Assembly (NCBI GenBank): GCA_028277945.1 | Contig: JANQFH010000008.1 | Span: 195,442 to 259,441 of the forward strand | DNA length: 64,000 nucleotides | Reading direction: 5' to 3' | DNA from: Oligoflexia bacterium | Lineage (GTDB): Bacteria > Bdellovibrionota_G > JANQFH01 | Part shown: positions 3,907-44,740 of the stretch, piece by piece | Layout of the letters: each line of letters starts with the position of its first letter | How positions within the stretch are numbered: position 1 is the stretch's first letter | Translations under genes and position numbers: made by a program | Notes under the pieces: model-generated | What the model was told of the DNA's origin: nothing | What the model saw: the letters and a program-made list of their open reading frames with translations, nothing else | Databases searched by the model: none

Positions 3907-5727
3907 TCAAGTTTCTGTTATCGAAATCGGCACATAGCCAACGAGTTCTTTTGGGATGATGCCAACAGAGAGTTTGGCACATCGTTGCTGAAGAGGTTTT
4001 TCTTCATAACGATTGGTCACTAAGATACTCTTTTTGGCAATTCCGAGGCTTTCGATCAGGTCAAGACCGTTCTCTTGCTCTCCAGCAAGTTCATAGTCCA
4101 TGAGAAACAGCGACGACCCATTGTGTTCCAACTGTGAGCAGTCGACTTTAAAACTCTTGGCTGAGCGATAGTGCCGGATGTTCAAGTTCACTCCGTTCAA
4201 CTCCTGCTTAAAACGATAGTCCCATGTTTGGTGTACCGACTGGTCATCGTCAAGAACGATTGCATCCATCCCTTGACTCACCTGCAGGCTAGGTACGAAC
4301 CAGGAGGCCGGGGCGGTTCTCGGCAGCACAAGCGTCACGCAAGTACCCTGGCCAACCTCGGAGTCTATACTGAGATTGCCATTCCACGATTCAAGGGCCT
4401 TACGAGCCTGATAGAGACCAAGGCCCGAGCCTCCTTCTTTGTTATAGGTAAATCCGCGCTCACCGAGTTGGCTGAGCACATCTTTGGGAATGCCTTTACC
4501 ATTATCTCGAATAGTAATCCTGATCTTATCCTTGTCTGGAGGTTTATTATCGTTTTTACTAAGTCCAACTTCTATCAATCCTCCTTTGGGCATTGCCTCA
4601 ACGGCGTTGTTGACAAGGTTGGAGATGACTCGCTTAAAGGTCTTGGGGTCTATCTTGGAGAACAGTCCGTAACAGCTGGGTTCAAAGGTGTCCCGTATCT
4701 GCAAGTCTGTCCTCTCTTTAAACTGCATACGTTTTTCAGAGAGAACGCGACTGACAAGGCTGCTGAGTAGTACAGCCTCTCTTTGGCTGACCTCTGCTTT
4801 CTGGCTATCCATGGTGTCTTCTTTTCTTTTATTTAAATCATTGGCAACATCTCGAATTCTGTCGATAACACTGCGAATCAGCGTGCGTACCTGTTCAGGC
4901 AGATCAACGCAGATGTTGGTTACTGTGTCTAAGGCAGTCAAAGGAGATTGGATATCGTGTGCTACCTGTGTGGCGATCTCTCCCAAGGCCGCGTCCCGCT
5001 CCTTTTTCAAAAGCTCATGTTGCAGCTCGGTGATCTTTTCGCCTACCTCATTGATTGTCTTGTCTATCTCTTTTGATTCAGAGAAGAACAGTGGCGGCAC
5101 AGGTGGCGAGTCATGACGTCTGGCAAGGCCCTTGACGCGACTACGAATCGACAGGATTTCACTCCTAAAAATACGAAACTTTCTATGAGCAATGTAGGAG
5201 GATAGCAACAGTAGCACGGCAAGGGCGACTGTAGTGTAAAAAATAAACTTGTTTTGCAAAGAGCGTAGAAAACGGATGTCAGATACCAAAAATAGCCGCG
5301 CTTGAAGATGTTGTTTCCCGCCAACCATGGTGTGGAAGAAATCAGCCGTTTTATATATGAAGTCTTCGGAGTTTTGGTATTGATCTAGCCTGTTGCTTGA
5401 AAAGAAGCTGCATCCGGTATCGGTGCCGTTGCTGAATGCAAGGCACTGTTGCTCATTATCAAGCAAAAATGCCGCCTTGATATTGCTCAACCCTGAGAGC
5501 GTTTTGAAATACTCCTCTGCAGGCAGGTAGTCTGAATAACTCACCGATTTAGCGATAGCCCAGCGGGTCTGAGCAATAATGACGTCGAACTCCTTGAGGT
5601 AGTTGTCCTTTAGAATCTTCGGCACATAGTAAAAGGCAAGAAAGGCACCAAAGAGCAATAGCACAAGCTGACTACTTAAAATCCCAAGCAGGACTACCGT
5701 TGAAATCGATTGATGGTGCGGTTTCAT
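3907..5727 (-). CDS. hybrid sensor histidine kinase (cassette A)
   Basis: Two TM segments flank a periplasmic region of about 130 aa. H-box VAHDIQSPLTAL. N-box NLVNNAVEAM. G-boxes DNGKGIP and GGSGLGL. C-terminal receiver-like domain (IVLDDD .. LFLMDYEL .. ILVTNR .. IPK). Paralog of 22314-24110 and 35658-37532. Confidence 0.85.
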   Translation of the reverse strand: MKPHHQSISTVVLLGILSSQLVLLLFGAFLAFYYVPKILKDNYLKEFDVIIAQTRWAIAKSVSYSDYLPAEEYFKTLSGLSNIKAAFLLDNEQQCLAFSNGTDTGCSFFSSNRLDQYQNSEDFIYKTADFFHTMVGGKQHLQARLFLVSDIRFLRSLQNKFIFYTTVALAVLLLLSSYIAHRKFRIFRSEILSIRSRVKGLARRHDSPPVPPLFFSESKEIDKTINEVGEKITELQHELLKKERDAALGEIATQVAHDIQSPLTALDTVTNICVDLPEQVRTLIRSVIDRIRDVANDLNKRKEDTMDSQKAEVSQREAVLLSSLVSRVLSEKRMQFKERTDLQIRDTFEPSCYGLFSKIDPKTFKRVISNLVNNAVEAMPKGGLIEVGLSKNDNKPPDKDKIRITIRDNGKGIPKDVLSQLGERGFTYNKEGGSGLGLYQARKALESWNGNLSIDSEVGQGTCVTLVLPRTAPASWFVPSLQVSQGMDAIVLDDDQSVHQTWDYRFKQELNGVNLNIRHYRSAKSFKVDCSQLEHNGSSLFLMDYELAGEQENGLDLIESLGIAKKSILVTNRYEEKPLQQRCAKLSVGIIPKELVGYVPISITET

Positions 5728-5736
5728 TCTCCAAAC

Positions 5737-6675
5737 TCAAGAGATAGGGTGAAGCGCTGCATGTCGTGGTTGGCAAGCATAGCCCAGGCCCTGGGCACGC
5801 TTTTTGTTAATTTGAATCTCGTTCTCGGAAAAGAAGAGCTCTTGTAAACCATTGGAGAACGCCTGGCAGACAACTACGGAAAAAAATGGCAAGAGCTTTT
5901 GTTTGGTAAAGACAAATTCAACATGGATACGGCTTTTTCGCAGGCTATTCTCCAGCTCTCTAAGCGAGTGGTTTGGAAGGCTGGATTCATCAAGTTTCTT
6001 AATGTCATAGTCGGCTGGCGAAAAAGGCGGTATTTCTGTACTGCATACGGTCGGCACGACAAAGGGGAGAATATGCCAGAGGTTGCCACGGATATCTGTG
6101 GGTGGAGGGACATTGCGTGAGTCATAGAGGAGCAGAGCCTCTTTTAGTGCTTTATCCTTGGCTCTGGCCAGATCAAACGCCGCACCAAAACCGTAGCAAC
6201 GTTGTTTCTCAGCAGAAGCAATCTCAGTCATGACCACATGAATGGGAAGATCATGGGTGAGATAGAAGAGGCGAACGTTTTTGTCTTGGTTATGATCGAT
6301 TTCCCATAATACTTTGTTATAGAAGACGGATAGCAGAGCTTGATCGCGCTCAGCCAGTTCGATTAGCGCTGCTTGTCTTGCCTCATTACGGTTGAAGTGG
6401 CAACTCAGGCCGTTGGTGGTTGGCTTGACAGGTTTTGCGTAATAGTGATGTCGCTCCACACACTCCATCAGTGCCGTCAGTTGTGCCTGATAGGGATCTA
6501 AGGCGACACCCACGCCAGCTACCCGATCGTCTCGTCCCTGGGCGTAGACACGGTGCCAGGTGAGGTTGTTAAAGCGAATCTCTTTGTGGGCGAGCGTTTT
6601 GACGATTCCCTGCTGCTGTTTAAGAGTACCCGCAATAACGAGGTTAAGTCGAGCTCTCTGCAGCAGTTGTCCCAT
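5737..6675 (-). CDS. minimal YcaO-domain protein (cassette A)
   Basis: Two ExxER motifs in YcaO-like contexts: LTALMECVERH and TNGLSCHFNRNEARQAALIELAERDQALL. Paralog of 13582-14607. It is only 312 aa with no fused partner domain. Confidence 0.6.
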   Translation of the reverse strand: MGQLLQRARLNLVIAGTLKQQQGIVKTLAHKEIRFNNLTWHRVYAQGRDDRVAGVGVALDPYQAQLTALMECVERHHYYAKPVKPTTNGLSCHFNRNEARQAALIELAERDQALLSVFYNKVLWEIDHNQDKNVRLFYLTHDLPIHVVMTEIASAEKQRCYGFGAAFDLARAKDKALKEALLLYDSRNVPPPTDIRGNLWHILPFVVPTVCSTEIPPFSPADYDIKKLDESSLPNHSLRELENSLRKSRIHVEFVFTKQKLLPFFSVVVCQAFSNGLQELFFSENEIQINKKRAQGLGYACQPRHAALHPIS

Positions 6676-6688
6676 GGCCTACAGTGAG

Positions 6689-8248
6689 TCATGGAGTTGC
6701 CGGCAGAGCAGTTCTTGCCAGCCTCATATCCGCGAAATTGATGTTAAACTCCCACTCTGGCATGTGAGATAGATCGATTTTGGAGGAGGCATAAAAGGGT
6801 GTGGCCAGAAAATAGTAGGGAATAACAAAGCCCTCTTCTAGCATATAGCGGCTGATCTCTCTTGCCATTTGGATACGCTCTTTGGTGTTTCCTGTGGACC
6901 TGGTTGCTTCAATCATCTTATAGAGCCTGCCATCGTTAGGATCACGCACATAAAAGTCATCTGGACCAAAGTCTAGACGAAACACCAAACAAGGGTCTCC
7001 TGGTGGTATGGGTATAATACGGGACCCAAGATCAAAGCCTTGTCCCTGCAATCGGGCTTGTTTCATGGAACTACGAGATAGGGGGGTCATCTCAATTTGA
7101 AATCCATACGCTGAGAGATCATTGATTAATAATAGATCTCTCTTTGTTCTCTTATTCCAAACGTCTGGGTACATATATCTCAACGTCAAAGGCTCCTCTC
7201 TCAACCTGGCATAGATTGCTGTAAACTCTTTGGTCGCAGGTAGTGGGGCTTCAATGCGGCCACTAAAGCCGGGGGGAAAGAACTGATCAGAAGGAGCGTA
7301 AAGAAGTGAGTTACCGAATCTCTTGTGTTGGTGCTCTATGAGAGCTGCAGCAAAGGCAAGCCGTAGGGTTTTGTCCTTAAGGGGGCCTGTAATCGCATTG
7401 ACATAAACAATACGGCTCCAGTTACGTTTTGGTATAAACTGCTGAAAACGCTTTACCCTCTCTTGATCCTCTCGTTCTACTAGTCTATTGCGCTTATCTA
7501 AGAAGATGTCTGTTGTGCCTGCTAAAAGACGCTCCACAGCCTCCAAATCGTCACGCTCATAAACAATAACCGTCTGTGCTCTCTCGCCCCGTGGCTCAAA
7601 CCACTGCTCATGCCACTGCAACTTCACATAGTCCTTACGTTTCCACTCCACAAACTTGTAGGGTCCGCCTAACACAGGAAGCTTTTCTTTATGATAAGGC
7701 TCGTTCTCTGGATAGATCTTCCTCGGTACAACACCAGTACCTGGCATGGCTAGAATAAAGAGAAAGTACTCATAGGGGTTCGATAGGTTAAACTCCAAAG
7801 TGTGTTTGTCGATCATACGAATGGCTTTAGAATCTTTCTTTGGATCGACCCAATCAAAGAGCACGTACTCGGGCCAGTTAGTCTGTTTTCTCTTTAAGGA
7901 GAAGATAACATCTTCAACAGTGATAGGTGAGCCATCGTGAAAGAAGGCATCTTTTCTGATGGTGATCTCATAGCGTCTGCCACCATCATAAGAGCGCCAG
8001 CTCTGAGCTAACATGCCTATCAATGATTGGTCTTCGGCAATAGCAAAGAGGGTGATGGAGGTGCTGTTCAACATATACCAACCGCTGTTGGTCATATTTG
8101 CAGCTGGATCAAGAAAAGCTGGAAAATGATCCAGGTCCAACTTGATTGTGGAGCGGTCATCGCTTTGCAGCTGAGGCAGAGAACTGGCAAAACAGACAGC
8201 CGAAAGGAGTCCTAGGATGCCGACGGCTTTAAAAATCAATCTTTTCAA
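6689..8248 (-). CDS. periplasmic solute-binding protein, family 5 (OppA/DppA-like) (cassette A)
   Basis: Signal peptide GILGLLSAVCFASS. Family-5 signature region LAQSWRSYDGGRRYEITIRKDAFFHDGSPITVEDVIFSLKR. Length is about 520 aa. Confidence 0.85.
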   Translation of the reverse strand: MKRLIFKAVGILGLLSAVCFASSLPQLQSDDRSTIKLDLDHFPAFLDPAANMTNSGWYMLNSTSITLFAIAEDQSLIGMLAQSWRSYDGGRRYEITIRKDAFFHDGSPITVEDVIFSLKRKQTNWPEYVLFDWVDPKKDSKAIRMIDKHTLEFNLSNPYEYFLFILAMPGTGVVPRKIYPENEPYHKEKLPVLGGPYKFVEWKRKDYVKLQWHEQWFEPRGERAQTVIVYERDDLEAVERLLAGTTDIFLDKRNRLVEREDQERVKRFQQFIPKRNWSRIVYVNAITGPLKDKTLRLAFAAALIEHQHKRFGNSLLYAPSDQFFPPGFSGRIEAPLPATKEFTAIYARLREEPLTLRYMYPDVWNKRTKRDLLLINDLSAYGFQIEMTPLSRSSMKQARLQGQGFDLGSRIIPIPPGDPCLVFRLDFGPDDFYVRDPNDGRLYKMIEATRSTGNTKERIQMAREISRYMLEEGFVIPYYFLATPFYASSKIDLSHMPEWEFNINFADMRLARTALPATP

Positions 8249-8458: not shown

Positions 8459-9051
8459 ATGAGGCGATGGTTTTATGAGCTAACCATATTCGGAACCATC
8501 CTTACCAGTTTGAATGCCTATGCAGTGAGTGAGGAGTGTGCGGCCTTTTTCCAGAACAACAACATTTATCCTGGTGCCGATTGTGAATTGTCGTGTGCAA
8601 CTTTGCCGACATCAATGGCTACGTTTGGTTGTCCCGCTCAGTGTCGCGAATACTGTCGTTCCCGGACATTAGCGACAGAACCCTCCAAATCGAATGAGCC
8701 TTTAGATAGCTTGCCAATGGATGAAGAAGAGCGTCGGCAGCGCCTTAAGGAGTTTGCTATAGAAGAGTTCAAGAGTGAAAACCGATGCAACGCCTTGGCC
8801 AATATTGTCGATGAAGCCTCCAGGCTCATTGGGAGTGAGGAGAACCCCTCAAAGACCATGCTTGAGGATCTTAAAGAGGTGCTAATTGGAGAAGGGCTTC
8901 ATGAAGGTCGAGGGAAGGGGCCATATTTTGCTGGTAATGTCTATGGCGCTTTGGTGACGTCCTGAATGATGACAACTATGACACATTAGGGGATAGGATC
9001 AGAACAGCGATTGGAGATGAGAGTTGTCAGAAACTAGAGGAAATCAAATGA
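8459..9051 (+). pseudogene. secreted Cys-rich protein, apparently frameshifted near its 3' end
   Basis: ORF 8459-8965 has a signal peptide and many Cys, and stops at TGA 8963-8965. Another frame is open from 8938 and encodes LNDDNYDTLGDRIRTAIGDESCQKLEEIK* (8962-9051). That sequence aligns with the C-terminus of the paralog at 1-83. Its stop overlaps the ATG of the next gene (ATGA at 9048-9051). Confidence 0.5.
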
Positions 9052-9431
9052 AAAGGCTTTGGAAGGTCGCCAAGGTATTACTCTTCATTTTCTTGTTCCT
9101 AGTCGTGGTGGGTTCAGGTTTTGTAGTCGCTCTGATTATGACTAAAGATCAGGAACTCAAGGTTGCTCAGGAGGCGGCCTATGAGGTAGTGACCTCCATT
9201 ATGTCCTCCAAAGATAGACAACGTGAAGTTGGAATGCCTCAAGGTGTGGAACTTATCGACACGGATCCGGAAGATATTGATATATTATTTAGAACTTGGC
9301 AGTTTTGGTACGATTGCAAGCCTGAGGGCGTGCTTTTGTTGGAGTTTTTTCCCAAACGGGGGATTTGGATTTTTCATTTGTTCAACAGGAAAAAAGACCT
9401 AGAACTGATTACAGCAAAATACATAAAGTGA
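9048..9431 (+). CDS. small single-pass membrane protein (paralog of 98..481)
   Basis: ATG at 9048 gives MKRLWKVAKVLLFIFLFLVVVG.., matching the start of the paralog. The track start at 9024 is a TTG extension. Confidence 0.6.
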   Translation: MKRLWKVAKVLLFIFLFLVVVGSGFVVALIMTKDQELKVAQEAAYEVVTSIMSSKDRQREVGMPQGVELIDTDPEDIDILFRTWQFWYDCKPEGVLLLEFFPKRGIWIFHLFNRKKDLELITAKYIK

Positions 9432-9716
9432 TGGCACTGAGCAAAAGAGACAAAAACAAGATTAAAAGCGTCTAGCTACCTATCTACCTCGTACAACCAT
9501 ATTCTTGGCAATTTTGGTGGAGAATTTCTGGCTTGATCACACCAACTTCAAATTTACTTAATAATTTTAGATGGTTATTATTAAATCTGTTATTCCGGCA
9601 AAAATATCGGCATATTTCTCTTAAAAAATAACTTCCCAAATTTATAACCATTTGTTATAAAATGTTATATATGAAAAATTCATCGGTAATAATACCGGCA
9701 TTTTCGACTTAAATCC

Positions 9717-10907
9717 ATGTCTCATCCAAAACCAGAGTCTCCAGCGCTTATGGAGCCGATGCTTCCGGCTGCAGGACAATCCTCGCAACTCGAGGATCTT
9801 GCTGTTGATCTCATTGCCAAGGGCAGTAGCTTTCACAGCCTTTTGCCCACGAACCTACAGACAGGCATTGCGGATCTGGTGCGCTCGATGAACTGCTATT
9901 ACAGCAATCTCATCGAAGATCATCACACCCACCCCCGCGACATTGATCGCGCTCTAGCAGATGATTTCTCTACTGAACCAAAAAAGAGAGCCTTACAATT
10001 GGAAGCCAAAGCGCACATTGAAGTACAACGCCTCATGGATCATGGAGGCATCCCCGCCAATCCAACGACGTCTACATTTATTACCTGGATCCACCGGAAG
10101 TTTTGTGAGCGTTTGCCCGACAATCTTCTATGGACTGAAAACCCTGACAGTGGAGAACGTCTTCGCATCCACGCAGGCAAGCTCAGACAAACTAATGTCA
10201 TAGTTGGTCGCCACCTTGCGCCTGAGGCAAAAAATCTCCACGCTTTTCTGGCTCGCTTTCAAGAGGCCTATGATCTACAGCGCCTTTCCAAAGTGCAACA
10301 GATCCTCGCAGTCGCTGCGTCACATCATCGGTTACTGTGGATCCACCCTTTTCTCGACGGCAACGGTAGGGTGGCACGTCTCTTCTCGCATGCGCTCTTG
10401 TTGCATCTGGGTATTGGCAGTTCCCTTTGGTCAGTATCACGCGGTCTAGCCCGTAGCGTCGACGACTATAAAAGCATGCTCATGCAGGCAGATCAGCTGC
10501 GCCGCAATGACCATGATGGTCGTGGTACGCTCTCCCAACAAGGGCTGATGGATTTTTGTGGCTTTTTCTTGGCCACATGTCTTGATCAAATTGAGTTCAT
10601 GCGCTCTCTGTTAGAACCTAAAGAGCTTCTAAATCGTGTTGCTGTTTATACCGAAGAAGAGATGCGTGCCAAGAGACTTCCAAAAGGGAGTCTGGCGCTA
10701 TTGCGACATGCCATACTGGTTGGCGAGATTGCGCGCCATGAGCTCTCTGGCATTACGGGTTACAAAGAACGTCAGGCTCGTAATGTATTAAAAGAACTAT
10801 TAGCTAAAAAACTCCTTTACTCAGCAACTCCACGTGGCCGCGTGCGTCTGGGTTTTCCTATTGAGGTGGTAGAGCGCTGGTTCCCAACCCTCTACCCTGG
10901 AGTCTAA
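9717..10907 (+). CDS. Fic family protein (AMPylase-type)
   Basis: Canonical Fic motif HPFLDGNGRVARLFSHALL. About 400 aa with a C-terminal wHTH-like tail. No adjacent small antitoxin gene seen. Confidence 0.9.
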   Translation: MSHPKPESPALMEPMLPAAGQSSQLEDLAVDLIAKGSSFHSLLPTNLQTGIADLVRSMNCYYSNLIEDHHTHPRDIDRALADDFSTEPKKRALQLEAKAHIEVQRLMDHGGIPANPTTSTFITWIHRKFCERLPDNLLWTENPDSGERLRIHAGKLRQTNVIVGRHLAPEAKNLHAFLARFQEAYDLQRLSKVQQILAVAASHHRLLWIHPFLDGNGRVARLFSHALLLHLGIGSSLWSVSRGLARSVDDYKSMLMQADQLRRNDHDGRGTLSQQGLMDFCGFFLATCLDQIEFMRSLLEPKELLNRVAVYTEEEMRAKRLPKGSLALLRHAILVGEIARHELSGITGYKERQARNVLKELLAKKLLYSATPRGRVRLGFPIEVVERWFPTLYPGV

Positions 10908-11045
10908 TAAGCGCTCTGTCACGATAACAAAAGGATAGACCACCCATAGTGTCCCCAGGGGCCGATTTGCAACTAGCCAGCGCATGCGATAGACTAGATC
11001 TAAGCTAAGACAACGAGATTTTTGAACATCTTCGCGGAGATACGC

Positions 11046-11987
11046 ATGCAACCAACCCCCCGTTTGTGGGTTTTGCCTCTCTTGATACTCTCTCTTCTAG
11101 CCAGTCCACTGATGGCCCAGGGGCCCGTAGAGGAGCTGGAGAAACAGCAAGAGGATACCCGTCTCTACCTTGAGACCATCGACATGCTCAAGGACAACTC
11201 CCTGGAAAATCAAATCAAAGGCTGGGAGAAGTTCCTCAAGGAGCATCCCGACAACTACTTTCGTGATGAGATCGAGGCCAACCTCGATAACATGAAGGCA
11301 CGCCAGGAGATCATTGCCAGAGAGCAGGAAGAGCAGGATTCTCGACGCTACTTTGCAACCGTGGAGCGGGCCGCAGACAAACCCGTAAGCGAGCAGATCC
11401 CTATCTGGGAGAAGTACCTCAAAGAGAACCCAGACTCACTCTTTGCCAACGAGGCACGCACCACCCTAAACCGCCTGCGTCTACAAGCAGGGCCTGCTGT
11501 GGCACCAGCCCAACAACCCCTGCCATCATCGCCACCCCCTCCAGCGCCCCTACCAACAGCTCCGCCAACCGTCGAGACCACCGCCAAAGATCTGACCCTG
11601 CAGGATGATGGGCTGCTCGATCCCAATCGCGCCCTCTTTCTCGCCTCCGTCCCAGGTCTCATTGTTCCAGGCCTTGGCCACTTTTATGCCGGCAACTATA
11701 CTATTGGCGGAGTCCTCGTCGGCCTACGCGTAGGTGGCTTAGCCCTCATGGGCTATGGTTTCTTTGATGAAAACCGCTTAGCGCTGATTATCCCCGGCAG
11801 CCTGGTGGCTGGCTTCTCCTACGTTCTCGATGTGGTCATGGCGCCCATCCAGGTACGCAACCGCAATCACAGCCTCGAGCCACTCCCACCCTTAGAGGGG
11901 AGCCAACTCAGACCTCTCGACCAAGATCACCCCTTCGCCAAGGCAGAGCAGGAGCTGCTCACCCTCACTGTGGGCTTCTCCTTTTAG
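11046..11987 (+). CDS. secreted repeat protein with Pro-rich linker and C-terminal membrane segments
   Basis: Start at MQPTPRLWVLPLLILSLLASPLMAQG (signal peptide). Duplicated W(E)K(F/Y)LKE(H/N)PD.. repeats. The linker PLPSSPPPPAPLPTAPP is followed by hydrophobic GLGHFYAGNYTIGGVLVGL. Confidence 0.55.
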   Translation: MQPTPRLWVLPLLILSLLASPLMAQGPVEELEKQQEDTRLYLETIDMLKDNSLENQIKGWEKFLKEHPDNYFRDEIEANLDNMKARQEIIAREQEEQDSRRYFATVERAADKPVSEQIPIWEKYLKENPDSLFANEARTTLNRLRLQAGPAVAPAQQPLPSSPPPPAPLPTAPPTVETTAKDLTLQDDGLLDPNRALFLASVPGLIVPGLGHFYAGNYTIGGVLVGLRVGGLALMGYGFFDENRLALIIPGSLVAGFSYVLDVVMAPIQVRNRNHSLEPLPPLEGSQLRPLDQDHPFAKAEQELLTLTVGFSF

Positions 11988-12329: not shown

Positions 12330-12345
12330 TGGCACACAATTTGCT
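12330..12345 (+). promoter_or_regulatory. sigma-54 (-24/-12) type promoter upstream of short ORF 12393
   Basis: TGGCACacaatTTGCT. GG at 12331-12332 and GC at 12343-12344 are separated by 10 nt, matching TGGCAC-N5-TTGCW. It lies about 48 nt upstream of ATG 12393. Confidence 0.6.
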
Positions 12346-17643: not shown

Positions 17644-17648
17644 GCTAT

Positions 17649-18392: not shown

Positions 18393-18395
18393 CTT

Positions 18396-27779: not shown

Positions 27780-27817
27780 TCATCATGCCAATTTTTTATT
27801 ACGTTTTAGTTGCCTCA

Positions 27818-37532: not shown

Positions 37533-39042
37533 ATTGGTAGCGTTTTTCCGGGACTTTAATATGTTTGTGGTAAATTACCGGAGTATAAAGATGAAATAAT
37601 GGAACGATAAATGACTTTTCCTCAAACTCAATCATTAGATCAGTGTATTTTTCTAATCTCCGTATACGGTCAGATATGAAACTGATTTCATCAGCACCCT
37701 TTAAAAGCTTCGTTGTGGGGAAATTGCCAAATTGGATTGGATTTTTGGCTCGAAACAAGTCTAGGAAGCCATCTGGGTCTGGTATGACTCCAAAATAACC
37801 TACCATAATCAAATCGTAATCTTTGCTTTTTAGAAGAGGTATAACCTCTTCAATATTTTTGAACTCTATAATCGGGATCATACCTACGTTGGTCAACACT
37901 TCACTGATAGCCTTACCTACAGGTATGTTTAAATATTCTTTCCTCAAAACTATTCTAAGCTTTTTATGTTTTACTTTATTTTTCCAGAGCTTTTTGAAAC
38001 TGATCGGACTCATACGGCGAAAGTCACGTTCGTAGTATCTTCTTAGAAGAACGCCATGTGGTAAAAAATGCTTCTGATGGTCTATAAAGAAACCGGGTTT
38101 CTCTATCTGGGAAACTCGAGTTTTTATTAGCGCCGCAATATCTCTTCTAAAACTTTCATTACTTAGTGCTGGATTGTCAGTGTTTGTATATAGATGTAGG
38201 ATGCCCAGTCCTCCTAGACGGAGTAACTGATAATTATTTGGTAGTGTTCCCGGTTGTAATCCTGGATCAGCAAAGCCTAATGCGAAGTCAATCGAGTCAT
38301 TCCGTAATTGTGATAGTAGTTGATTTGCGCTTTCTACCCGTCGAAACGAAAGCCTGGATATATGGCTATCATTGGGAACGAACGGAACCATCTGCAGACG
38401 ATTTGGCAGTTGTACTGAGTCCAGAGAAAAAGAGCCAGACCCCACTACCTGAGAAGAACTACCAGAGGACTTTTTAGTTACACCGTAACCAGGTACTGCT
38501 AACAATTCTAACAGATACGGATACGGACGCTTGAGGCTTAGAATAATCGTGTGCTGATTCGGAGTGATAATTCCCGATGGTATTTGTCCATCTTTCAGGT
38601 TTTCGGCACCTACCACGATACGACCTAGATAGCTGGATATTTGCGTCATACTACCTTGCCATAAATGGCGTGACAGACTAAAGGCGATATCTTTACTCGT
38701 AATGAGCGCACCATCATGGAACCGAGCATGACGATCCAGATGAAAGCTATAACGTCTTCCATCTGAAGATATCTTCCAGCGCCTTGCAAGATCAGCTGTA
38801 ATACGATTTTCTTTGTCTAACTTTACTAGAGTGCGTAAGTATGGTCTAAGAAGGTCAGAATGTACGTAATGCCACGCATCTATTGGATCCAGAGAGCTGG
38901 GCAAAATAGGCAACGCTATCTCAAAGCTGTTGGTTGTCTTACGGTACTTCTGTTTAGATGATGCTGCATAAGTATGAAAGACAAATGAAAATAAAAGAAA
39001 GTGCAACAGGCACGCCTTCATCAAAATGTGAATGAGTTTCAC
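37483..39042 (-). CDS. periplasmic solute-binding protein, family 5 (cassette C)
   Basis: Signal peptide LLHFLLFSFVFHTYA. Signature region LARRWKISSDGRRYSFHLDRHARFHDGALITSKDIAFSLSR. The 3' end overlaps the HK ORF. Confidence 0.85.
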   Translation of the reverse strand: MKLIHILMKACLLHFLLFSFVFHTYAASSKQKYRKTTNSFEIALPILPSSLDPIDAWHYVHSDLLRPYLRTLVKLDKENRITADLARRWKISSDGRRYSFHLDRHARFHDGALITSKDIAFSLSRHLWQGSMTQISSYLGRIVVGAENLKDGQIPSGIITPNQHTIILSLKRPYPYLLELLAVPGYGVTKKSSGSSSQVVGSGSFSLDSVQLPNRLQMVPFVPNDSHISRLSFRRVESANQLLSQLRNDSIDFALGFADPGLQPGTLPNNYQLLRLGGLGILHLYTNTDNPALSNESFRRDIAALIKTRVSQIEKPGFFIDHQKHFLPHGVLLRRYYERDFRRMSPISFKKLWKNKVKHKKLRIVLRKEYLNIPVGKAISEVLTNVGMIPIIEFKNIEEVIPLLKSKDYDLIMVGYFGVIPDPDGFLDLFRAKNPIQFGNFPTTKLLKGADEISFISDRIRRLEKYTDLMIEFEEKSFIVPLFHLYTPVIYHKHIKVPEKRYQFDFPLYRLQWAKDNEI

Positions 39043-40130
39043 TGCGTACTCCGGTCACAGTAGATCTCAATATCATTCTGTTTTATCAGTATATGTTTTT
39101 GTGTATACGTTACTTCTACGCCTTTATGGTGTGCTTTGTAATCATATCTATAATGACCATCGAAATATCGGCATATTTGTAACGGCCCTGATTTTTTTAG
39201 TAGGTCTGTCACCCCCAATTGTAGAGGATTTTTATTTCCCGAACGTGATGACGAGGCCATCTCCTGAAACGGATGCAATTTTGAATCAATTCGCTTAGGT
39301 ACATTAGGATGAGCGTAATAAAATATTTCTCTGTCACCGCACTTCCTAAAGTAATAGGGAATGTCACCTCGTTCTAATTGTTCTAGCTCACTAGGTAGAA
39401 ATTCGTTCCCGTTTAAATTATTCGCCTTCTTTGTCAAGAAGGAATGATAATCTCTTGTAGACCGAGGAATGACCCGAATCGGATTTTGCATGAATCCATC
39501 AATGGAAGCAAAAAGATTCGCTGTGAGTTCTGTTACTGATGAGAGAAAGTTCAATGCGTCAAAAAAACCAAAGCAAATTGCAGCAACGCCACTGTGGGAT
39601 CTATCCAACTCTCGAAAGTTATTTAATAGGTGGGAGAGTCCTGAATCTTCAAATGTCAATGCAGGGGAAGGTATGAGTGCTGTTTCAGAGAGAAGTGTGT
39701 GATCTTCAAAGATACATTCTATATCGATAGGGCTGAATATGATACTGCCAGCAGAAGTCTTGCCAAGCAATACATTGGCACGGTGCAGATCTCCAATTCC
39801 GAACCAAGTAATAAGTGCGATGGTACGGCCAATATCTTCTAATACTTCTAAATCTAGATCTTTGGAAATGAGAGGTTTAAGTAGGAGTTCCTCTACTCTG
39901 CCAAAACATTTTTCACCAGGAGATGACATTTCGACATATAGTTTTGGTAAAGATCTTCCTGGGTATACAAATCCCCTTTTCTTAGCTTCAGATTCTAATA
40001 AAGATGTTAAGGGACTTAATCGAGATAAGAAGAGGTATTCCCAAAATACAGTTCTAGGCTTGCAAATCCTTTGGGTACCATCACGACAAACTCGCTGTCC
40101 AAAATTGTGAGGGTCGCCTAACGGTTGCAT
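39039..40130 (-). CDS. stand-alone kinase-like protein resembling the LanM N-terminal (DUF4135-type) domain
   Basis: WFGIGDLHRANVLLGKTSAGSIIFSPIDIECIF contains a D-x-H-x-x-N catalytic-loop pattern followed by (I)D.E. As I recall, this is how class II lanthipeptide synthetase kinase domains read. No LanC-like cyclase domain is attached. Overlaps the SBP start by 4 nt. Confidence 0.45.
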   Translation of the reverse strand: MQPLGDPHNFGQRVCRDGTQRICKPRTVFWEYLFLSRLSPLTSLLESEAKKRGFVYPGRSLPKLYVEMSSPGEKCFGRVEELLLKPLISKDLDLEVLEDIGRTIALITWFGIGDLHRANVLLGKTSAGSIIFSPIDIECIFEDHTLLSETALIPSPALTFEDSGLSHLLNNFRELDRSHSGVAAICFGFFDALNFLSSVTELTANLFASIDGFMQNPIRVIPRSTRDYHSFLTKKANNLNGNEFLPSELEQLERGDIPYYFRKCGDREIFYYAHPNVPKRIDSKLHPFQEMASSSRSGNKNPLQLGVTDLLKKSGPLQICRYFDGHYRYDYKAHHKGVEVTYTQKHILIKQNDIEIYCDRSTQ

Positions 40131-40174: not shown

Positions 40175-40258
40175 CTAGATCCCTACAGTCACGCCACGTA
40201 TTACGACAATCTTCTCCAATTTATCTAAATCTATGTATTCTCGTCTTCTTTTTTTCAT
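40175..40258 (-). CDS. candidate precursor/signal peptide, 27 aa (cassette C); not in ORF track
   Basis: Minus-strand ATG at 40258-40256. Translation checked codon by codon: MKKRRREYIDLDKLEKIVVIRGVTVGI*. RBS AGGAG at 40269-40265, 6 nt before the ATG. The stop is 44 nt upstream of the kinase-like gene. Confidence 0.45.
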   Translation of the reverse strand: MKKRRREYIDLDKLEKIVVIRGVTVGI

Positions 40259-40904: not shown

Positions 40905-41050
40905 TATGAGGCTTTCCATAAACTGGTAGCCTTCGGCAATTGCAGCATCGGTAATTTGGTCCTTCAAACTGTCAACACTTCTCCGTCCCCAAGCACATGA
41001 AGTGTGTTGAACTTGAAATAGGTCTGCTACCTAAGCGAATGCTTTCCTAC
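40905..41050 (-). pseudogene. 3' remnant of a paralog of gene 44960..46414
   Basis: Minus-strand translation ..LFQVQHTSCAWGRRSVDSLKDQITDAAIAEGYQFMESLIAN* aligns with ..FLFSKSPECWAKNATGLKDQITDAAITEGRQFMESLIVN* of the 484-aa protein. An in-frame stop lies further upstream. Confidence 0.65.
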
Positions 41051-41116
41051 ATTCCTATTGAAGTAGTTGGGCATAAATTACGTTAGTGGTTTTAACAAAT
41101 ACTAGTTAAGGTCTTG

Positions 41117-42331
41117 ATGTTTAGATTCTATTTCAACTCTTTTCGAGGTTTACCCAGGGCGGGAGTGTTGCTTTCATTGGCTGCATTGATAAACCGTCTT
41201 GGAAGTGTGGTGTTGTTTTTCTTTGCGATCTATTTAACGAAAAATAATTGGAGCGTATTTGATATTGGGAAGGTTCTATCAGCCTATAGTTTTGGCTATG
41301 CAGGTGGGGCTTATCTTGGTGGTCGTCTTAGTGATCGTTATGATAGCCGTTTTATACTTATAATTACACTAATGGGTTCTGGCTTATGTTTCTTCGGACT
41401 TTCTATAGCGGATTCTTTTACACCTGTTATTCTTTTACTTTCTATGGCTGGCATTTTGGAAGGTGCCTTTAAACCAGCATACAATGTTACAATGACCCGA
41501 TGTTGTACCCAGGACGAGTGGTCACGTGCTTATGCACTGTATATGACCACGACTTATTTAGGAGGAGCTATAGCTTCAATGGCAGGTGGATTTTTGTCCA
41601 AATGGAACTTTAGCTACATTTTTTATTTTGATGGTGTAACGTGTATCATTGCAGCGGTTTTTGTGTGTATTGTTTTCGATCGGCTAACCCGTTCAGTGGA
41701 AGCAGAGAAAGAGCAAATCACCGATGAGTTCAGTCTATCTAAAAATACACCTCCATCTTCTCTAGTTATTTGGATAATTTTTGTATCCATGTTTTTTGTC
41801 TATCTTGTTGATCAACAGGAGTCTGGAAGCTATATGATTCATATTACAAAACAGTATGGTATTGATACTCACCAGGTAGGTATGTTGATTGCTTTTGGCT
41901 GTGTACTTATGGCACTGACCACTGTACCTTTGACTCAGTTTTTCAAACGCATTCCGGATTTTATCGCGATGACTTTAGGATCTTTGATTCTTTGCCTGTC
42001 CTTTGGTCTTTTGAATCAGGGTGATAGTTTTGCCTTTCTTTTCTTGTTGATGGCTATGTGGTCCTTGGGCAGCATCATATCATTTCCGACCGTAGTGAGC
42101 CTCATTGGTAAGTACTCAACAAAGGAAAGGGTTGGACATAACATGGGAATTTACCATTTCATCTCTGGCTTAAGCAGAATCGTCGCGCCCTCTCTTGGTA
42201 CCTATGTCTATCAAAACTTGGGTCCGAATATCTTGTGGAGTGCTTGCACTGCTATTGGTGTTTTCAGTGGTGTATCCTTCCTTCTCATTTATCGTTTTAG
42301 TTTAAGGTCAATTCACTCCAGAGAAGCATGA
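41117..42331 (+). CDS. MFS transporter (cassette E)
   Basis: ATG at 41117. MFS motif-A-like LGGRLSDRYDSRFILII. 12 hydrophobic helices. Its stop overlaps the next start (ATGA). Confidence 0.8.
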   Translation: MFRFYFNSFRGLPRAGVLLSLAALINRLGSVVLFFFAIYLTKNNWSVFDIGKVLSAYSFGYAGGAYLGGRLSDRYDSRFILIITLMGSGLCFFGLSIADSFTPVILLLSMAGILEGAFKPAYNVTMTRCCTQDEWSRAYALYMTTTYLGGAIASMAGGFLSKWNFSYIFYFDGVTCIIAAVFVCIVFDRLTRSVEAEKEQITDEFSLSKNTPPSSLVIWIIFVSMFFVYLVDQQESGSYMIHITKQYGIDTHQVGMLIAFGCVLMALTTVPLTQFFKRIPDFIAMTLGSLILCLSFGLLNQGDSFAFLFLLMAMWSLGSIISFPTVVSLIGKYSTKERVGHNMGIYHFISGLSRIVAPSLGTYVYQNLGPNILWSACTAIGVFSGVSFLLIYRFSLRSIHSREA

Positions 42332-43131
42332 AACTGATCGAAAGAGATGTAGCTTTAATCAACCATGAATATTACATCGATGGAATTGCTGGCAGTCAGT
42401 ATACATCGAGACAGGTGTTTACGTGCCGAGGTAAACTATTTGTTGTGATTGATGAATTGTGTGTCGATAAGTTACATGATATAGCGGTTAACTACGTTGG
42501 CCAATATAGTACTAAGAGTATAGTGTGTCTTTGCTCACATTTACGTGTTAGACAAATTAGTGAAATGTGGGAAAAGACAAGTTCAAAATTCTATTCGTGG
42601 TTTGGTTTTACGTTTGATCCGGCATTGTCCCGGTTCGACTTTGCTTACTCGAAAAGTGCACTAGAGGGATTCGACGTATCGGTCGGTATGCCAATTAGTA
42701 AGGTTGAAAAGGAAACACTGTTAAAATTGTGGCAAAAACACTATATTGAAAAGGTTCTCCTAGGTTATCCGGAGAAAATAAGGCATCGTTATCTTGAAGA
42801 ATTTCAACAAAGATTGGGTTCTGATAATGAAAATCGGCATACCATAGTTCGGCAGGATAGTGAGATTGTGGCCCATCAGATGCTACGAAGACTTTTTACG
42901 GAGCAAAGAAACTGTTGGGATAAAGAGTTGCACTTTTGGGTCGATGGACAGCTGAATAAGTCGATTCGACGAGAAATTCATCGACGGTTTTGGTATGAAG
43001 TACATGAGGCATCGAGAAAACATATGGTGCTTGGTGGTGTTGCGAGTAATAATATATCGAGTATCAAACATCTCATTAAAAATGGTGGCCGATTACTTTT
43101 TATTCAATACATAGGGTTATCGTCTTACTAG
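42328..43131 (+). CDS. cytoplasmic protein of unknown function, translationally coupled to the MFS gene (cassette E)
   Basis: ORF track. No signal peptide and no motif I can name with confidence. The C-terminal half is vaguely acyltransferase-like (..LGGVASNNISSIKHLIKNGGRL..). Confidence 0.55.
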   Translation: MKLIERDVALINHEYYIDGIAGSQYTSRQVFTCRGKLFVVIDELCVDKLHDIAVNYVGQYSTKSIVCLCSHLRVRQISEMWEKTSSKFYSWFGFTFDPALSRFDFAYSKSALEGFDVSVGMPISKVEKETLLKLWQKHYIEKVLLGYPEKIRHRYLEEFQQRLGSDNENRHTIVRQDSEIVAHQMLRRLFTEQRNCWDKELHFWVDGQLNKSIRREIHRRFWYEVHEASRKHMVLGGVASNNISSIKHLIKNGGRLLFIQYIGLSSY

Positions 43132-43254: not shown

Positions 43255-43343
43255 AACCTTGACGGATTTAAGCGATCAGGGTAAGCATTTATAATTAGAC
43301 GAGATTATAAATGAGCTTAGAAAGGGAAGCGCAATGCGGAGTT
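43255..43343 (+). repeat. about 90-nt repeat, copy 1 (copy 2 at 47261..47352)
   Basis: The shared ends AACCTTGACGGATTTAA and GATTATAAAT.AGCTT.GAAAGG.AA..GCAATGCGGAGTT flank a diverged middle. The repeat includes the ATG (MRS..) of the SBP ORF. Confidence 0.6.
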
Positions 43344-44740
43344 CAAAAATTGGTATGACAAACGTTCCAAGTGACCTTGATCCATTGAAGGCACGATATG
43401 CTTACGACCTGATGATGAACGCATGCGTTTTTTCGCGACTTGTACAGCTTGATGGTAATGGTCAGGTGGTGTCAGAGCTTGCGTCCAGTTGGAAGGTTAG
43501 TGATGCAGGAGATGAGTATACCTTTACCTTGAATTCGGACGCGAGATTTCATGATGGGTCACCAGTAACAGCTCGAGATGTTGTCTATACCTTCGAAAGG
43601 ATCTTGAAGTCAGATCGGCCACCTGCTTCGATTCTTCGTCTAGCATTAGATCCTTCCTTTCGTTCGGATGAGGATTGTCCGGTAAAGGCAGTGAACGATC
43701 GTCAGGTCAAATTTCATTTACCTGGTGCGTACCCGCCATTTCTGTCTCTGCTTTGTAATCCTGTTTTTGGAATAGTTGCTCAGGATAGTGATGGTAAGAT
43801 TGGCTCTGGTCCAATGGTGCTGGAGGCTGACGAGCATAGTAAGACATTGAAGTTTAAACCCTTCCAGGAAGGCGCCGGTCTCGGCGAGTTTTATGTAAAG
43901 CAGATCTCCCGTGACAGCTTACCGGAAGTTATTGCCGAAGATGAACTAGATCTGATTTTTGGGCTCAATTCAATAGATTTTCAGAACGTAATCCGCATAG
44001 ACCCATACAAGGTCGTCAGAGGCCATGATTCGTTTGTCGCTCACTTTTTATGCAATACCAAAAGTCCAGTACTAGATTCTTTAGAGAGGCGACGTAATCT
44101 AAGCTATTTGATCAATTCGCTTTCAGATGAAGTGAGCAATTTAGCAGAATATCAAAAACCGCTGAAAAGTTTTCTACCAAGTGGGTTGTTGTCGCCATCT
44201 TATTACCAGAGAGCAACATCGCCTGTATCCGAGGATGCCTTTAGTGCAAAAAACAGCCAATTCAAAGCCCAACCGCTGCGTATCGTGGTTCAGAAAGGTA
44301 TTTTTTCTCAGAGTTATATGAGTGCGCTAGGTTCTCTAATAGAAAGGCTAGGTATGGTACCTGATATTCAACTAGTGGATTCAGACGCATTATGGAACCG
44401 CTATGCAAAGGATGATTATGATCTTATATCTTTTAGTTACAGTTTGGCGATTCCCGACGATCCAGATGGCTACCTATGGCCCTTCGACAATAAGGAGCTC
44501 GGCATTGATAATCGGTTTCCTATGAGCTCTTTTCTTCAGAAGATTGAAAAGGTCCGTTTTACGTCGAACCAGAAAGAGAGACTCGAGCTCTATGAACGTG
44601 AGTTCAAGCAGTTTGAACAGGAACATTACTTTATTCCAGTGCTTCAACATGACCATCTTATTGCTTTTAAAAACCGGAGCGAAATACCGACTTTAAAGCC
44701 TACATTCCTTTATCGATTGTCTGATTTTATCAGACCTTAG
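43334..44740 (+). CDS. family-5 solute-binding protein lacking a signal peptide (possibly truncated/inactive) (cassette E)
   Basis: It aligns with the cassette B SBP from ..LKIGVSILPQTLDPMK (here MRSSKIGMTNVPSDLDPLK) onward, so the leader peptide is missing. The new 5' end is supplied by the 90-nt repeat. The rest is intact (..ASSWKVSDAGDEYTFTLNSDARFHDGSPVTARDVVYTFER..). Confidence 0.75.
   Translation: MRSSKIGMTNVPSDLDPLKARYAYDLMMNACVFSRLVQLDGNGQVVSELASSWKVSDAGDEYTFTLNSDARFHDGSPVTARDVVYTFERILKSDRPPASILRLALDPSFRSDEDCPVKAVNDRQVKFHLPGAYPPFLSLLCNPVFGIVAQDSDGKIGSGPMVLEADEHSKTLKFKPFQEGAGLGEFYVKQISRDSLPEVIAEDELDLIFGLNSIDFQNVIRIDPYKVVRGHDSFVAHFLCNTKSPVLDSLERRRNLSYLINSLSDEVSNLAEYQKPLKSFLPSGLLSPSYYQRATSPVSEDAFSAKNSQFKAQPLRIVVQKGIFSQSYMSALGSLIERLGMVPDIQLVDSDALWNRYAKDDYDLISFSYSLAIPDDPDGYLWPFDNKELGIDNRFPMSSFLQKIEKVRFTSNQKERLELYEREFKQFEQEHYFIPVLQHDHLIAFKNRSEIPTLKPTFLYRLSDFIRP

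Follow-up and report, generated by a model that had tools for sequence, protein, structure and literature searches.

The stretch of DNA analysed here, the 64 kb 'window' (64,000 nucleotides of contig JANQFH010000008.1 from an uncultured, predator-like Oligoflexia bacterium), carries repeated gene cassettes in which a very short open reading frame (ORF) and a small enzyme of the type that tailors peptides made by the ribosome and modified after translation (RiPPs), in some copies together with a transporter of the major facilitator superfamily (MFS), stand beside a family-5 solute-binding protein (SBP5) and a hybrid histidine kinase (HK). This modular combination of peptide, enzyme (plus exporter), orphan SBP5 and hybrid kinase is real, is conserved in other genomes and is apparently undescribed. 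The region is best explained as a set of copies, complete in some cases and decayed in others, of one modular cassette that moves horizontally. Window proteins (most but not all ORFs of at least 100 residues) were scanned with the Pfam and NCBIfam profiles using the curated cut-offs (32.4 bits for SBP_bac_5, 25.7 for YcaO, 29 for DUF4135 and 40 for TIGR04267). An earlier note on this DNA had listed these genes; in the ORF listing and the profile scans each feature was found at or near the place given for it, and the HExxH, short YcaO and LanM-like tailoring genes all matched their family profiles above the cut-off. Loci from other genomes and metagenomes that were retrieved for comparison are labelled L001–L099.

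The five SBP loci of the window comprise two complete cassettes with precursors (cassettes 2 and 3), one that is complete except for a precursor and an exporter (cassette 1) and two that are decayed or partial (Table 1). Cassette 2 is a tight five-gene operon of ORF B, HExxH2, MFS2, SBP2 and HK2, with gaps of 38, 12 and 5 nt followed by an overlap of 14 nt. All three of the SBP5–HK pairs listed in the note are present, but SBP1 and HK1 are not adjacent, since the YcaO1 gene lies between them. In the HExxH1/YcaO2 cluster there is no kinase and the SBP is reduced to a decayed fragment; this fragment, already recognized as the remnant of a fifth SBP, is 78% identical over 27 residues to residues 55–81 of SBP4 (tblastn E of 9e-9) and 45% identical over 40 residues to SBP2. 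Cassette 4 is incomplete: it has no kinase and its SBP is leaderless, as had been claimed, with no signal peptide and with an in-frame stop 14 codons upstream. Just upstream of MFS3, positions 40988–41068 (+) give a weak tblastn match to the last 27 residues of HK1 (33% over 27 residues, E of 0.004), which may be a relic of a decayed cassette 4 kinase gene.

Table 1. Features of the cassettes in the window, with regulator genes and precursor sequences from the comparison loci (TM, transmembrane segment; DHp, dimerization and histidine phosphotransfer domain; CA, catalytic and ATP-binding domain)
Feature	Position	Strand	Evidence or sequence
HK1, hybrid histidine kinase	3907–5727	−	HisKA + HATPase_c; TM, ~115-residue periplasmic loop, TM, DHp, CA, receiver
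YcaO1, 312 residues, between SBP1 and HK1	5737–6675	−	Pfam YcaO 58.3 bits
SBP1, signal peptide, cassette 1 (YcaO type)	6689–8248	−	Pfam SBP_bac_5 123 bits; hydrophobic N-terminal signal
Perfect sigma-54 consensus	12330–12345	+	TGGCACacaatTTGCT; sole zero-mismatch match in window; 47 nt upstream of ORF A
Short ORF A, 40 residues, basic	12393–12515	+	MKDAKKTKRQQSKSSKKIFSPIKDKLLDTAMSTITYDVTG; GGGAGGA ribosome-binding site 5 nt before ATG
HExxH1, aKG-HExxH-type peptide beta-hydroxylase family	12609–13601	+	TIGR04267 66.4 bits
YcaO2, 341 residues, divergent, 20 nt overlap with HExxH1	13582–14607	+	Pfam YcaO 37.2 bits
MFS1, weak MFS_1, convergent with YcaO2	14620–15888	−	Pfam MFS_1 E 2e-5, below gathering score; multiple TM
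Decayed SBP fragment, relic of SBP4-like gene, 114 nt	16033–16146	−	tblastn
HK2, hybrid histidine kinase, 14 nt overlap with SBP2	22314–24110	−	HisKA + HATPase_c
SBP2, signal peptide, cassette 2	24097–25611 (or 25701)	−	Pfam SBP_bac_5 110 bits; signal starts at ATG 25611
MFS2, candidate exporter of cassette 2	25617–26933	−	Pfam MFS_1 E 6e-7
HExxH2, same hydroxylase family, cassette 2	26946–27779	−	TIGR04267 43.6 bits
Short ORF B, 34 residues, basic	27818–27922	−	MAKSNESKKTVSFNFSFQSHRVLGAKLASIPTGS; GGAG ribosome-binding site
MFS-like multi-TM protein, convergent with HK3, candidate cassette 3 exporter	34454–35638	+	TM-like segments; no Pfam match
HK3, hybrid histidine kinase, overlaps SBP3	35658–37532	−	HisKA + HATPase_c
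SBP3, signal peptide, cassette 3	37483–39042	−	Pfam SBP_bac_5 109 bits
Mini-LanM, stand-alone 363-residue LanM-type kinase/dehydratase domain, cassette 3	39039–40130	−	Pfam DUF4135 39.7 bits
Short ORF C, 27 residues, basic	40175–40258	−	MKKRRREYIDLDKLEKIVVIRGVTVGI; GGAG ribosome-binding site
MFS3 (cassette 4, incomplete)	41114–42331	+	Pfam MFS_1 192 bits
267-residue protein between MFS3 and SBP4	42328–43131	+	no Pfam or NCBIfam match
SBP4, leaderless, without kinase partner	43334–44740	+	Pfam SBP_bac_5 124 bits; 42% identical to SBP2
MFS4	47976–49151	+	MFS_1
Sigma-54 regulator, then ~70-residue His protein	L089:4677–6394, L091:4868–6446, L094:4836–6447, L046:2137–3932, L004:4147–5716		
ORF B family, L089			MKTNKKLGIKRRSFNLALLKNKLIGEVRASYP
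ORF B family, L090			MSTVTFNLEIHEDQILGEARASM
ORF B family, L091/93/94			MTD(T/S)(K/E)QIECEVLVSLEIFDDEIISESRASM
ORF C family, L008			MENVEIIDLDGIETQAETLGMTFTA
ORF C family, L062			MSDFQWIDLSDVEAGSDVLFTTDTM
ORF C family, L087			MENVKIIDLDSIENNAAQLLSTRTPITRPINDQSE
ORF C family, L088			MIIDLDKIENESAPAICTRTAPEN
ORF C family, L099			MKIVEVISLEAIETQAEASTSETKTH

A scan of 185,579 genomes, one per GTDB species, with a profile of the kinase returned 80 loci, in 16 of which an SBP5 gene lies directly upstream of the kinase. Together with two loci from exact look-ups these make up a set of 18 SBP5–kinase loci, and a recognized RiPP-type enzyme is encoded in the operon in ten of them. Short YcaO proteins (310–340 residues) occur in the order SBP–YcaO–HK, as in cassette 1, in L006, L045 and L074 and in the order YcaO–SBP–HK in L038 and L065; B12-radical-SAM enzymes are found in L002 (accompanied by an M19 peptidase and an ORF of 40 residues), L007 (with a methyltransferase) and L021; and mini-LanM is present in L008 and L062. 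When mini-LanM homologues were looked up in their own right, all seven were followed by an SBP5 and a kinase. A metagenome scan with HExxH2 gave three long loci that encode a sigma-54 regulator, a protein of ~70 residues, an SBP5, a short ORF, an HExxH protein, an orthologue of MFS2 and a kinase, and four short contigs with HExxH2 relatives are consistent with this gene order; wherever the contig was long enough, the HExxH2 relative stood in such a set of SBP5, peptide, HExxH, MFS and kinase genes. The neighbourhood survey thus found the linkage of SBP5, hybrid kinase, short ORF and tailoring enzyme, which had been noticed in this one genome, to be kept in relatives, with members in Bdellovibrionota, Elusimicrobiota, Oligoflexia and other metagenomic lineages. 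In the literature, which we covered incompletely, so that this is absence of evidence only, we found no description of RiPP-type enzymes linked to an SBP5 and a kinase.

ORFs A, B and C each lie directly upstream of a tailoring gene. Short ORFs homologous to ORF B are found directly upstream of the HExxH gene in L089, L090, L091, L093 and L094, and when a loose version of the ORF B C-terminal motif was used to search the HExxH loci in six frames all six matches were directly upstream of HExxH. The ORF C family shares an IDLDxIE motif and a Thr-rich C-terminus and precedes mini-LanM in L008, L062, L086, L087, L088 and L099; of ten matches to its motif in 210 kb (six frames), seven are located upstream of the enzyme gene at a distance of no more than 160 nt, and the mini-LanM precursor loci span 35–66% GC. 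ORFs B and C are thus conserved gene families, and by their sequences and positions we regard them as real precursor peptides of cassettes 2 and 3. Conservation of the short ORFs, on which the proposal in the note depends, therefore stands for these two; no relatives of ORF A were retrieved, and we treat it as a candidate precursor for HExxH1/YcaO2. A conserved DNA element upstream of the HExxH precursors was considered and rejected, as it proved to be the coding sequence of the SBP C-terminus, (K/R)(F/Y)W(D/N/E)F. Between the ORF B stop and the HExxH2 start, and overlapping the start codon, is a GC hairpin with a 5 bp stem (27775–27789; GGCATgatgaATGCC), which might tune the ratio of precursor to enzyme expression, by analogy with other RiPP operons. 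A different kind of short ORF was seen in L006 (6706–6891), L041 (7669–7881) and L074 (6648–6926): these encode secreted proteins of 61–92 residues with a signal peptide, lie directly upstream of the SBP and have in common a C-terminal G-x-I-C-(P/E) motif, and their SBPs form one clade. The Ile-Cys site is a plausible YcaO target; the G.IC[PE] motif was not found in the window.

The enzyme of cassette 3, mini-LanM, retains the active site of much larger proteins. Among 23 homologues the motifs GDPHN, KPR, GDLHxxN, D(I)E and R219...T225 are conserved, and these provide counterparts of Asp252/His254, Lys274, Asp347/His349/Asn352, Asp364 and Arg506/Thr512 of CylM. In CylM these residues are needed for phosphorylation and phosphate elimination (PMC4550811). 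The mini-LanM family profile matches LicM2 (PDB entry 6ST5; E of 4.9e-7) with the catalytic motifs aligned. An AlphaFold2 model (pLDDT of 88.8, pTM of 0.91) was compared with the PDB using Foldseek; CylM (PDB entry 5DZT; E of 1.5e-6, probability 1.00) and LicM2 were the only significant matches, with kinases resembling phosphoinositide 3-kinase next. The protein gives no LanC match and has no cyclase domain, ending at 363 residues, and its precursors have a conserved Thr and no Cys apart from a single Cys in L088. Phosphorylation or dehydration of Thr is therefore to be expected rather than formation of lanthionine. Judged from its sequence and the predicted model, mini-LanM is a plausible Thr dehydratase; it would be at most a stand-alone dehydratase or kinase and not a lanthipeptide synthetase. 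Published mining of DUF4135 excluded proteins of less than 500 residues (PMC10676384) and would thus have missed this family, which forms 24 clusters in 5.8 billion proteins.

HExxH2 is one of a family of about 35 clusters at E ≤ 1e-10 (HMMER scan), and His161, Glu162 and His165 are invariant in 21 of its members. A word-indexed homologue search with HExxH2 returned only the query itself; the relatives came from the full HMMER scan and from a pattern scan of metagenomes. YcaO1 keeps the ExxER, NGxxxH and ELxERD motifs, of which ExxER is invariant in the alignment, and the Pfam matches of YcaO1 and YcaO2 cover only the central ~120 of the 325 model positions. No YcaO partner of the kind known from azoline or thioamide pathways (E1-like/Ocin-ThiF, TfuA or dehydrogenase) is encoded next to the YcaO genes, whether those of the window or those of L006, L038, L045, L065 and L074. 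There is no protease in the window except for the HExxH proteins, which belong to the hydroxylase family; the loci of relatives carry M19, M10 or CAAX peptidases.

The window has five MFS or MFS-like genes, the number given in the note: four match MFS_1 and the fifth is the multi-transmembrane protein beside HK3, a homologue of which (E of 5e-51) occurs in the orthologous cassette of an Elusimicrobia genome (L062). Orthologues of MFS2 (E of 1e-42 to 1e-81) follow HExxH in L089–L092, L094 and L095, making this a core gene of the HExxH cassettes. The ten mini-LanM cassettes bear on the probable route of export. Six of these (the window, L008, L062, L087, L099 and L088, which is disrupted by an insertion sequence) have short leaderless precursors, and an MFS or MFS-like gene is present in five of the six. 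In the other four (L085, L086, L097 and L098) the precursors have 97–126 residues; they begin with a signal peptide of the Sec type and end in a related tail rich in Thr and Ser, while the IDL..E motif of the leader is seen only in L086. None of the four has an MFS or MFS-like gene (hypergeometric p = 0.024). Such complementarity between MFS and Sec would be expected if the product must reach the compartment of the SBP. In L099, itself a mini-LanM cassette, a single ORF of 865 residues (9045–11642, +) fuses MFS_1 and SBP_bac_5 with an extra hydrophobic segment between them; such a fusion is uncommon and matters for the question of the direction, export or import, in which the MFS protein works.

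The SBPs and kinases of the window are paralogous far beyond chance. The similarity of SBP2 and SBP4 has an E of 1e-125; SBP3 is 26–27% identical to both (1e-39 to 1e-47), SBP1 is 27–28% identical to the others over the N-terminal third (1e-14), and the three kinases are 34–37% identical to one another (1e-88 to 1e-112). Signal peptides are found in SBP1 (the start codon of which is TTG), SBP2 and SBP3 and in at least 24 of 32 relatives, and not in SBP4. These are orphan SBPs with no ABC permease or ATPase in the locus: there were zero BPD_transp or ABC_tran matches among the scanned window proteins or the annotated relatives. The best NCBIfam and PDB matches of SBP1–SBP4 are a mixture of SapA, NikA, NikZ, CntA, DppE, AppA, AccA, OppA, YejA and PrgZ, all far below the family cut-offs, and the four proteins are too divergent from all characterized family-5 proteins for a ligand class to be assigned. 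The proteins of solved structure that SBP1 matches include YejA and PrgZ, with low similarity (E of 1e-7 to 4e-5); its best PDB match is entry 4OET, which is named 'putative peptide ... binding protein' and which we take to be Campylobacter NikZ. In a rough neighbour-joining tree the SBPs group by cassette type, with all of the mini-LanM SBPs including SBP3 in one clade and SBP2/SBP4 as the sister of that clade, a grouping that from sequence fits matching of the SBP to its ligand. Leaderless SBP5 paralogues recur: besides SBP4, a second, signal-less SBP follows the kinase in L087 (11429–12829, +) and is itself followed by a 307-residue protein with a weak YcaO match (E of 0.002). Such paralogues may have a cytoplasmic peptide-binding role, or may simply reflect decay.

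HK1–HK3 share one layout, with a first transmembrane segment at residues ~10–40, a periplasmic loop of ~110 residues, a second transmembrane segment at ~150–180, a DHp domain, HATPase_c and a C-terminal domain of ~135 residues. The HATPase_c matches are of 69–92 bits, the HisKA matches are weak and the H-box VAHDI(R/Q)(S/A)P is invariant. Pfam Response_reg gave no match to the C-terminal domain at E ≤ 0.01, and a PDB sequence-profile search was empty. Profile–profile comparison of the C-terminal 135 residues with canonical receivers (CheY, PhoB, Spo0F, OmpR and NarL, together with two locus-encoded receivers) gave an hhalign probability of 95.8% and an E of 7.6e-9, with the receiver residues in register: the DD pair (DDD), the phospho-Asp D(YEL), the Thr and the Lys. 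The label of 'hybrid' kinase, which had been given to these proteins before, is therefore correct. Two transmembrane segments with a loop of ~100 residues between them are seen in 21 of 22 SBP-linked kinases, and in nearly all loci the co-oriented SBP and kinase genes overlap or abut, as in SBP-dependent sensor kinases of the LuxPQ, TorTS and ChiS–CBP design. Kinases of the same family and layout that have no SBP5 neighbour frequently follow a different binding protein: the 28 neighbouring proteins scanned included six Peripla_BP_6 proteins, three divergent SBP5s and one SBP_bac_3. The family thus gives the impression of a sensor that is coupled to binding proteins in general. Most HK1 homologues come from Bdellovibrionota, Oligoflexia (including Silvanigrella) and Elusimicrobiota.

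The comparison loci point to possible downstream partners. In L004, L046, L089, L091 and L094 the cassette is preceded by a regulator with receiver and Sigma54_activat domains and by a protein of 65–74 residues, which has one invariant His and one invariant Glu, belongs to no Pfam family and is a candidate new small phosphotransfer protein. The LuxP–LuxQ-like design proposed for the window is in these relatives extended by a sigma-54 response regulator. Homology of the small His protein to DHp or histidine phosphotransfer (Hpt) domains was considered and is not supported (hhalign probability 0.4% against the DHp region of the kinases). In the window itself, besides the perfect sigma-54 site ahead of ORF A, a site with two mismatches lies 94 nt upstream of ORF B, and sites with two mismatches also occur in L008 and L085. 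Sigma-54 promoters as a defining trait of the cassettes were rejected, the window-wide count being 48 against 33 ± 6.5, which was judged not above chance. Two sites with one mismatch are found elsewhere in the window. That at 28316–28331 (+) is upstream of a type IV pilin-like gene (28476–29189), which is followed by a CHASE2 adenylate/guanylate cyclase (29208–31196), and that at 57554–57569 (−) is upstream of a gene without assigned function (55970–57538). A relay to a sigma-54 activator may reasonably be inferred, and its partners in this genome must lie outside the window.

The most economical reading of these cassettes, and one that on genomic logic (the genes of the presumed signal and receptor being in a single operon and a route of export being present) we consider probable, if with considerable reserve, is that the SBP reads a modified peptide (RiPP) made by the cell itself and passes the signal through an SBP and hybrid-kinase phosphorelay. 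The cassette would encode a very short precursor, which one minimal RiPP-type enzyme (an aKG-HExxH hydroxylase, the cyclase-less mini-LanM as Ser/Thr dehydratase or a short YcaO) would modify in the cytoplasm. An MFS pump would export the product, the Sec pathway taking its place in those relatives with a signal-peptide precursor, and the orphan SBP5 would capture the product, or a small fragment of it, in the periplasm. The loaded SBP would then dock on the periplasmic loop of ~100 residues of the adjacent kinase, the receiver of which would feed a phosphorelay. Relatives encode the ~70-residue His protein and an NtrC-type sigma-54 activator next door; in this genome the relay would be encoded elsewhere and possibly be common to the three kinases. 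The output is probably sigma-54-dependent transcription that includes the precursor operon, giving autoinduction. The proposal in the note that each cassette makes and exports a peptide is supported in part, by the linkage, the two precursor families and the complementarity between MFS and Sec; 'each' is an overstatement in view of cassette 1, the HExxH1/YcaO2 cluster and cassette 4.

Several observations weigh against self-sensing as the explanation. The ~70-residue His protein has no significant similarity to the DHp domains of the kinases (the sole comparison, which did not extend to Hpt domains), and no response regulator, Hpt protein or sigma-54 activator was found among the scanned proteins of the window. 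Sigma-54-like sites are absent upstream of most of the relatives' precursors, and the GG is broken upstream of ORF C. MFS pumps rarely carry peptides beyond a few residues and the window has no processing protease, while the L099 fusion could equally mean SBP-assisted import. For cassette 1 neither a precursor nor an exporter could be recognized in the window, and there is no plausible short ORF upstream of SBP1. Among the weak best matches of the SBPs are Ni or metallophore binders (NikA, NikZ and CntA) besides peptide binders, and the co-clustering of SBP and enzyme type is also expected from simple co-inheritance. The main rival, which we think unlikely, is that the SBP and kinase sense an external cue (peptides of prey or competitors, cell-wall fragments or nutrients) and in response the cell makes an antimicrobial RiPP that is exported by the MFS protein. 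The sensor does look generic, as kinases of this family are also coupled with binding proteins of the amino-acid type (Peripla_BP_6) and with SBP_bac_3 (in loci that were not checked for a RiPP precursor); moreover, family-5 SBPs commonly bind environmental oligopeptides and the relatives belong to predatory or competitive lineages. However, the biosynthetic operon itself holds the sensor genes, which come after the precursor and are linked to it by translational coupling, an arrangement usual for autoinduction; the SBP clade tracks the type of enzyme and precursor across phyla; and the complementarity of the export routes puts the peptide in the compartment of the SBP.

A scavenging loop, in which the precursor gives rise to a RiPP-derived metallophore or small metabolite that is exported by the MFS protein and recognized in its loaded form by the SBP for uptake or sensing, seems to us quite improbable. 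Methanobactin with MbnE, and staphylopine with CntA and the MFS exporter CntE, would be the models; β-hydroxylation, the chemistry of the HExxH enzymes, is common in metal ligands, the precursors (23–40 residues) are as short as those of RiPP-derived cofactors and a role in transport would suit the MFS–SBP fusion of L099. NikA, Opp5A_nikA and the opine/metallophore protein CntA do figure among the best NCBIfam matches of SBP4 and SBP1, yet these lie far below the cut-offs (in one case 74 bits where 393 are required), and the scores of peptide binders are just as good. Against such a loop, too, no TonB receptor, ABC importer or metal regulator is present in any cassette examined, and the residues conserved in the precursor cores (Thr; Gly, Ala and Ser) are not obvious metal ligands. 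The SBP could alternatively serve in self-protection or as a chaperone, sequestering a toxic product or, as SBP4, binding the precursor in the cytoplasm, with the kinase being a neighbour or a sensor of envelope stress. Lantibiotic immunity lipoproteins provide a precedent and leaderless SBP5 paralogues do recur (SBP4 and the second SBP of L087), but we find this very improbable given that the SBP and kinase genes overlap or abut almost everywhere, that the SBP-linked kinases have a dedicated small periplasmic loop and that the pairing of the kinase family with binding proteins of three folds speaks for signalling. Finally, the cassettes might make no peptide at all, the short ORFs being unexpressed and the YcaO, HExxH and mini-LanM enzymes acting on some other substrate such as a protein, a metabolite, the SBP or the kinase. 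In favour of this, no precursor could be detected for cassette 1, ORF A has no known relatives and the E. coli YcaO has its role in a ribosomal protein pathway; even so, distant genomes share the ORF B and ORF C families, with the same position and a ribosome-binding site, and matches to their motifs are essentially confined to that position, so that we find this explanation hardly credible.

By design the closest known system to the self-sensing cassette that we favour is LuxP–LuxQ/LuxU/LuxO of Vibrio. In both, the gene for a periplasmic binding protein lies beside that for a hybrid kinase with a C-terminal receiver, and the relatives of the cassettes add a response regulator of the NtrC type, acting with sigma-54, and a small protein with a conserved His; LuxN and CqsS are parallel inputs in Vibrio, and the several paralogous kinases here could likewise converge on one relay. 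Unlike the SBP5s here, which are encoded in a peptide-biosynthesis operon, LuxP is a Peripla_BP_4 protein that binds autoinducer 2 (AI-2), a sugar-like compound made by LuxS. The sensor of LuxQ is a double-PAS domain in place of the loop of ~100 residues, and the small His protein of the relatives, in comparison with LuxU, is not detectably Hpt-like (judged against the kinase DHp only). ChiS, which serves in the sensing of chitin oligosaccharides, is also a hybrid kinase. In a 2021 review the CBP–ChiS pair of Vibrio cholerae is the sole case of a family-5 SBP with a sensor kinase (PMC8050422). CBP binds (GlcNAc)n (GlcNAc, N-acetylglucosamine), also serves an ABC transporter and has no linked biosynthetic genes, whereas the SBPs described here are orphans and only distantly related to it.

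Sensing of modified-peptide pheromones by histidine kinases is textbook Gram-positive biology, and diderms are thought to use small non-peptide autoinducers. By logic the nearest systems are ComQXPA of Bacillus, agrBDCA of Staphylococcus and the nisin and subtilin systems with NisK and SpaK, where precursor, modifying enzyme, export and histidine kinase share an operon and the modified ribosomal peptide is the autoinducer. These differ in that they are found in monoderms and the kinase binds the peptide directly, with no binding protein, hybrid kinase or sigma-54 output, and in their chemistry (isoprenylation, thiolactone and lanthionine). Family-5 SBPs that recognize ribosomal peptides include MbnE (methanobactin), PrgZ and OppA (peptide pheromones) and YejA, which also takes part in microcin C import. 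These SBPs feed ABC importers, and to our knowledge no SBP of this type signals through a kinase. YejA is also the SBP of the importer of phazolicin, a RiPP (PMC10128002). With the LanM enzymes CylM and LicM2 and the LanMbC dehydratases of dehydrazoles, mini-LanM has in common the lipid-kinase-like LanM fold and the catalytic counterparts; it is ~40% shorter than the LanM dehydration domain and is without a LanC-type cyclase.

It is quite possible that these cassettes represent a widespread, undescribed form of peptide signalling in diderms such as Bdellovibrionota, Oligoflexia and Elusimicrobiota, in which plug-and-play cassettes, each type with a single tailoring enzyme of its own, act as parallel channels that converge on a shared relay of His protein, NtrC-type activator and sigma-54; by analogy, and just as tentatively, this might be seen as a peptide-based counterpart of the multi-input quorum-sensing circuit of Vibrio. 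If so, diderms would run peptide signalling and would have solved the problem of the outer compartment by means of a periplasmic binding protein. Three unusually small RiPP enzyme families would be defined (LanM-type dehydratases of ~350 residues, YcaOs of ~320 residues and HExxH proteins of ~280 residues), and their matched, very short substrates would make them attractive for enzymology and engineering. The ligand–receptor pairs could supply orthogonal parts for synthetic biology, and the cassettes would open communication or prey sensing to tests in predatory and candidate phyla that have been little studied. On the more conservative reading of sensor-regulated RiPP clusters, the linkage of enzyme, SBP5 and kinase would still be a useful rule for genome mining.

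The setting of the cassettes suggests an accessory or mobile region. Between ~22 and 50 kb of the window the GC fraction is 0.39–0.44, compared with 0.48–0.52 in the flanks, and the window is dense in genes of toxin–antitoxin type: 3147–3773 (−), 9717–10907 (+), 19139–20923 (−), 50651–51907 (+), 58138–58536 (+) and 62183–62596 (+). The families represented are HicA with a helix-turn-helix antitoxin, Fic, a RES-domain protein, HipA and two PIN proteins. Cassettes of relatives are likewise flanked by HipA (L085), PemK (L098) or IS66 (L088). The low GC content and the richness in toxin–antitoxin genes, also met with in several relatives, fit mobile modules that turn over rapidly. Rfam and tRNA scans of the window gave no match for known RNAs. 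The exact sequences of YcaO1 and HK1 are on record only in one NCBI contig and in Logan SRR20820740.

A few neighbouring genes may be mentioned. Downstream of HK2 are five co-oriented genes (16150–22077, −), mostly for secreted proteins without a family; one of them, of 594 residues, carries a RES domain at its C-terminus and matches MbnB/TglH (MNIO) below the threshold (E of 0.005). Divergent from SBP1 is a gene pair (8459–9431, +) encoding a Cys-rich secreted protein of 168 residues and a protein of 135 residues with a single transmembrane segment, and a paralogous copy of this pair lies across selB, just outside the window (L001:9435–10537; E of 2e-48 and 3e-28). At 47976–50011 (+) a gene for a class I SAM methyltransferase comes after MFS4. 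These two genes could be another cassette remnant; methyltransferases occur in the SBP5–kinase operons of L031 and L007.

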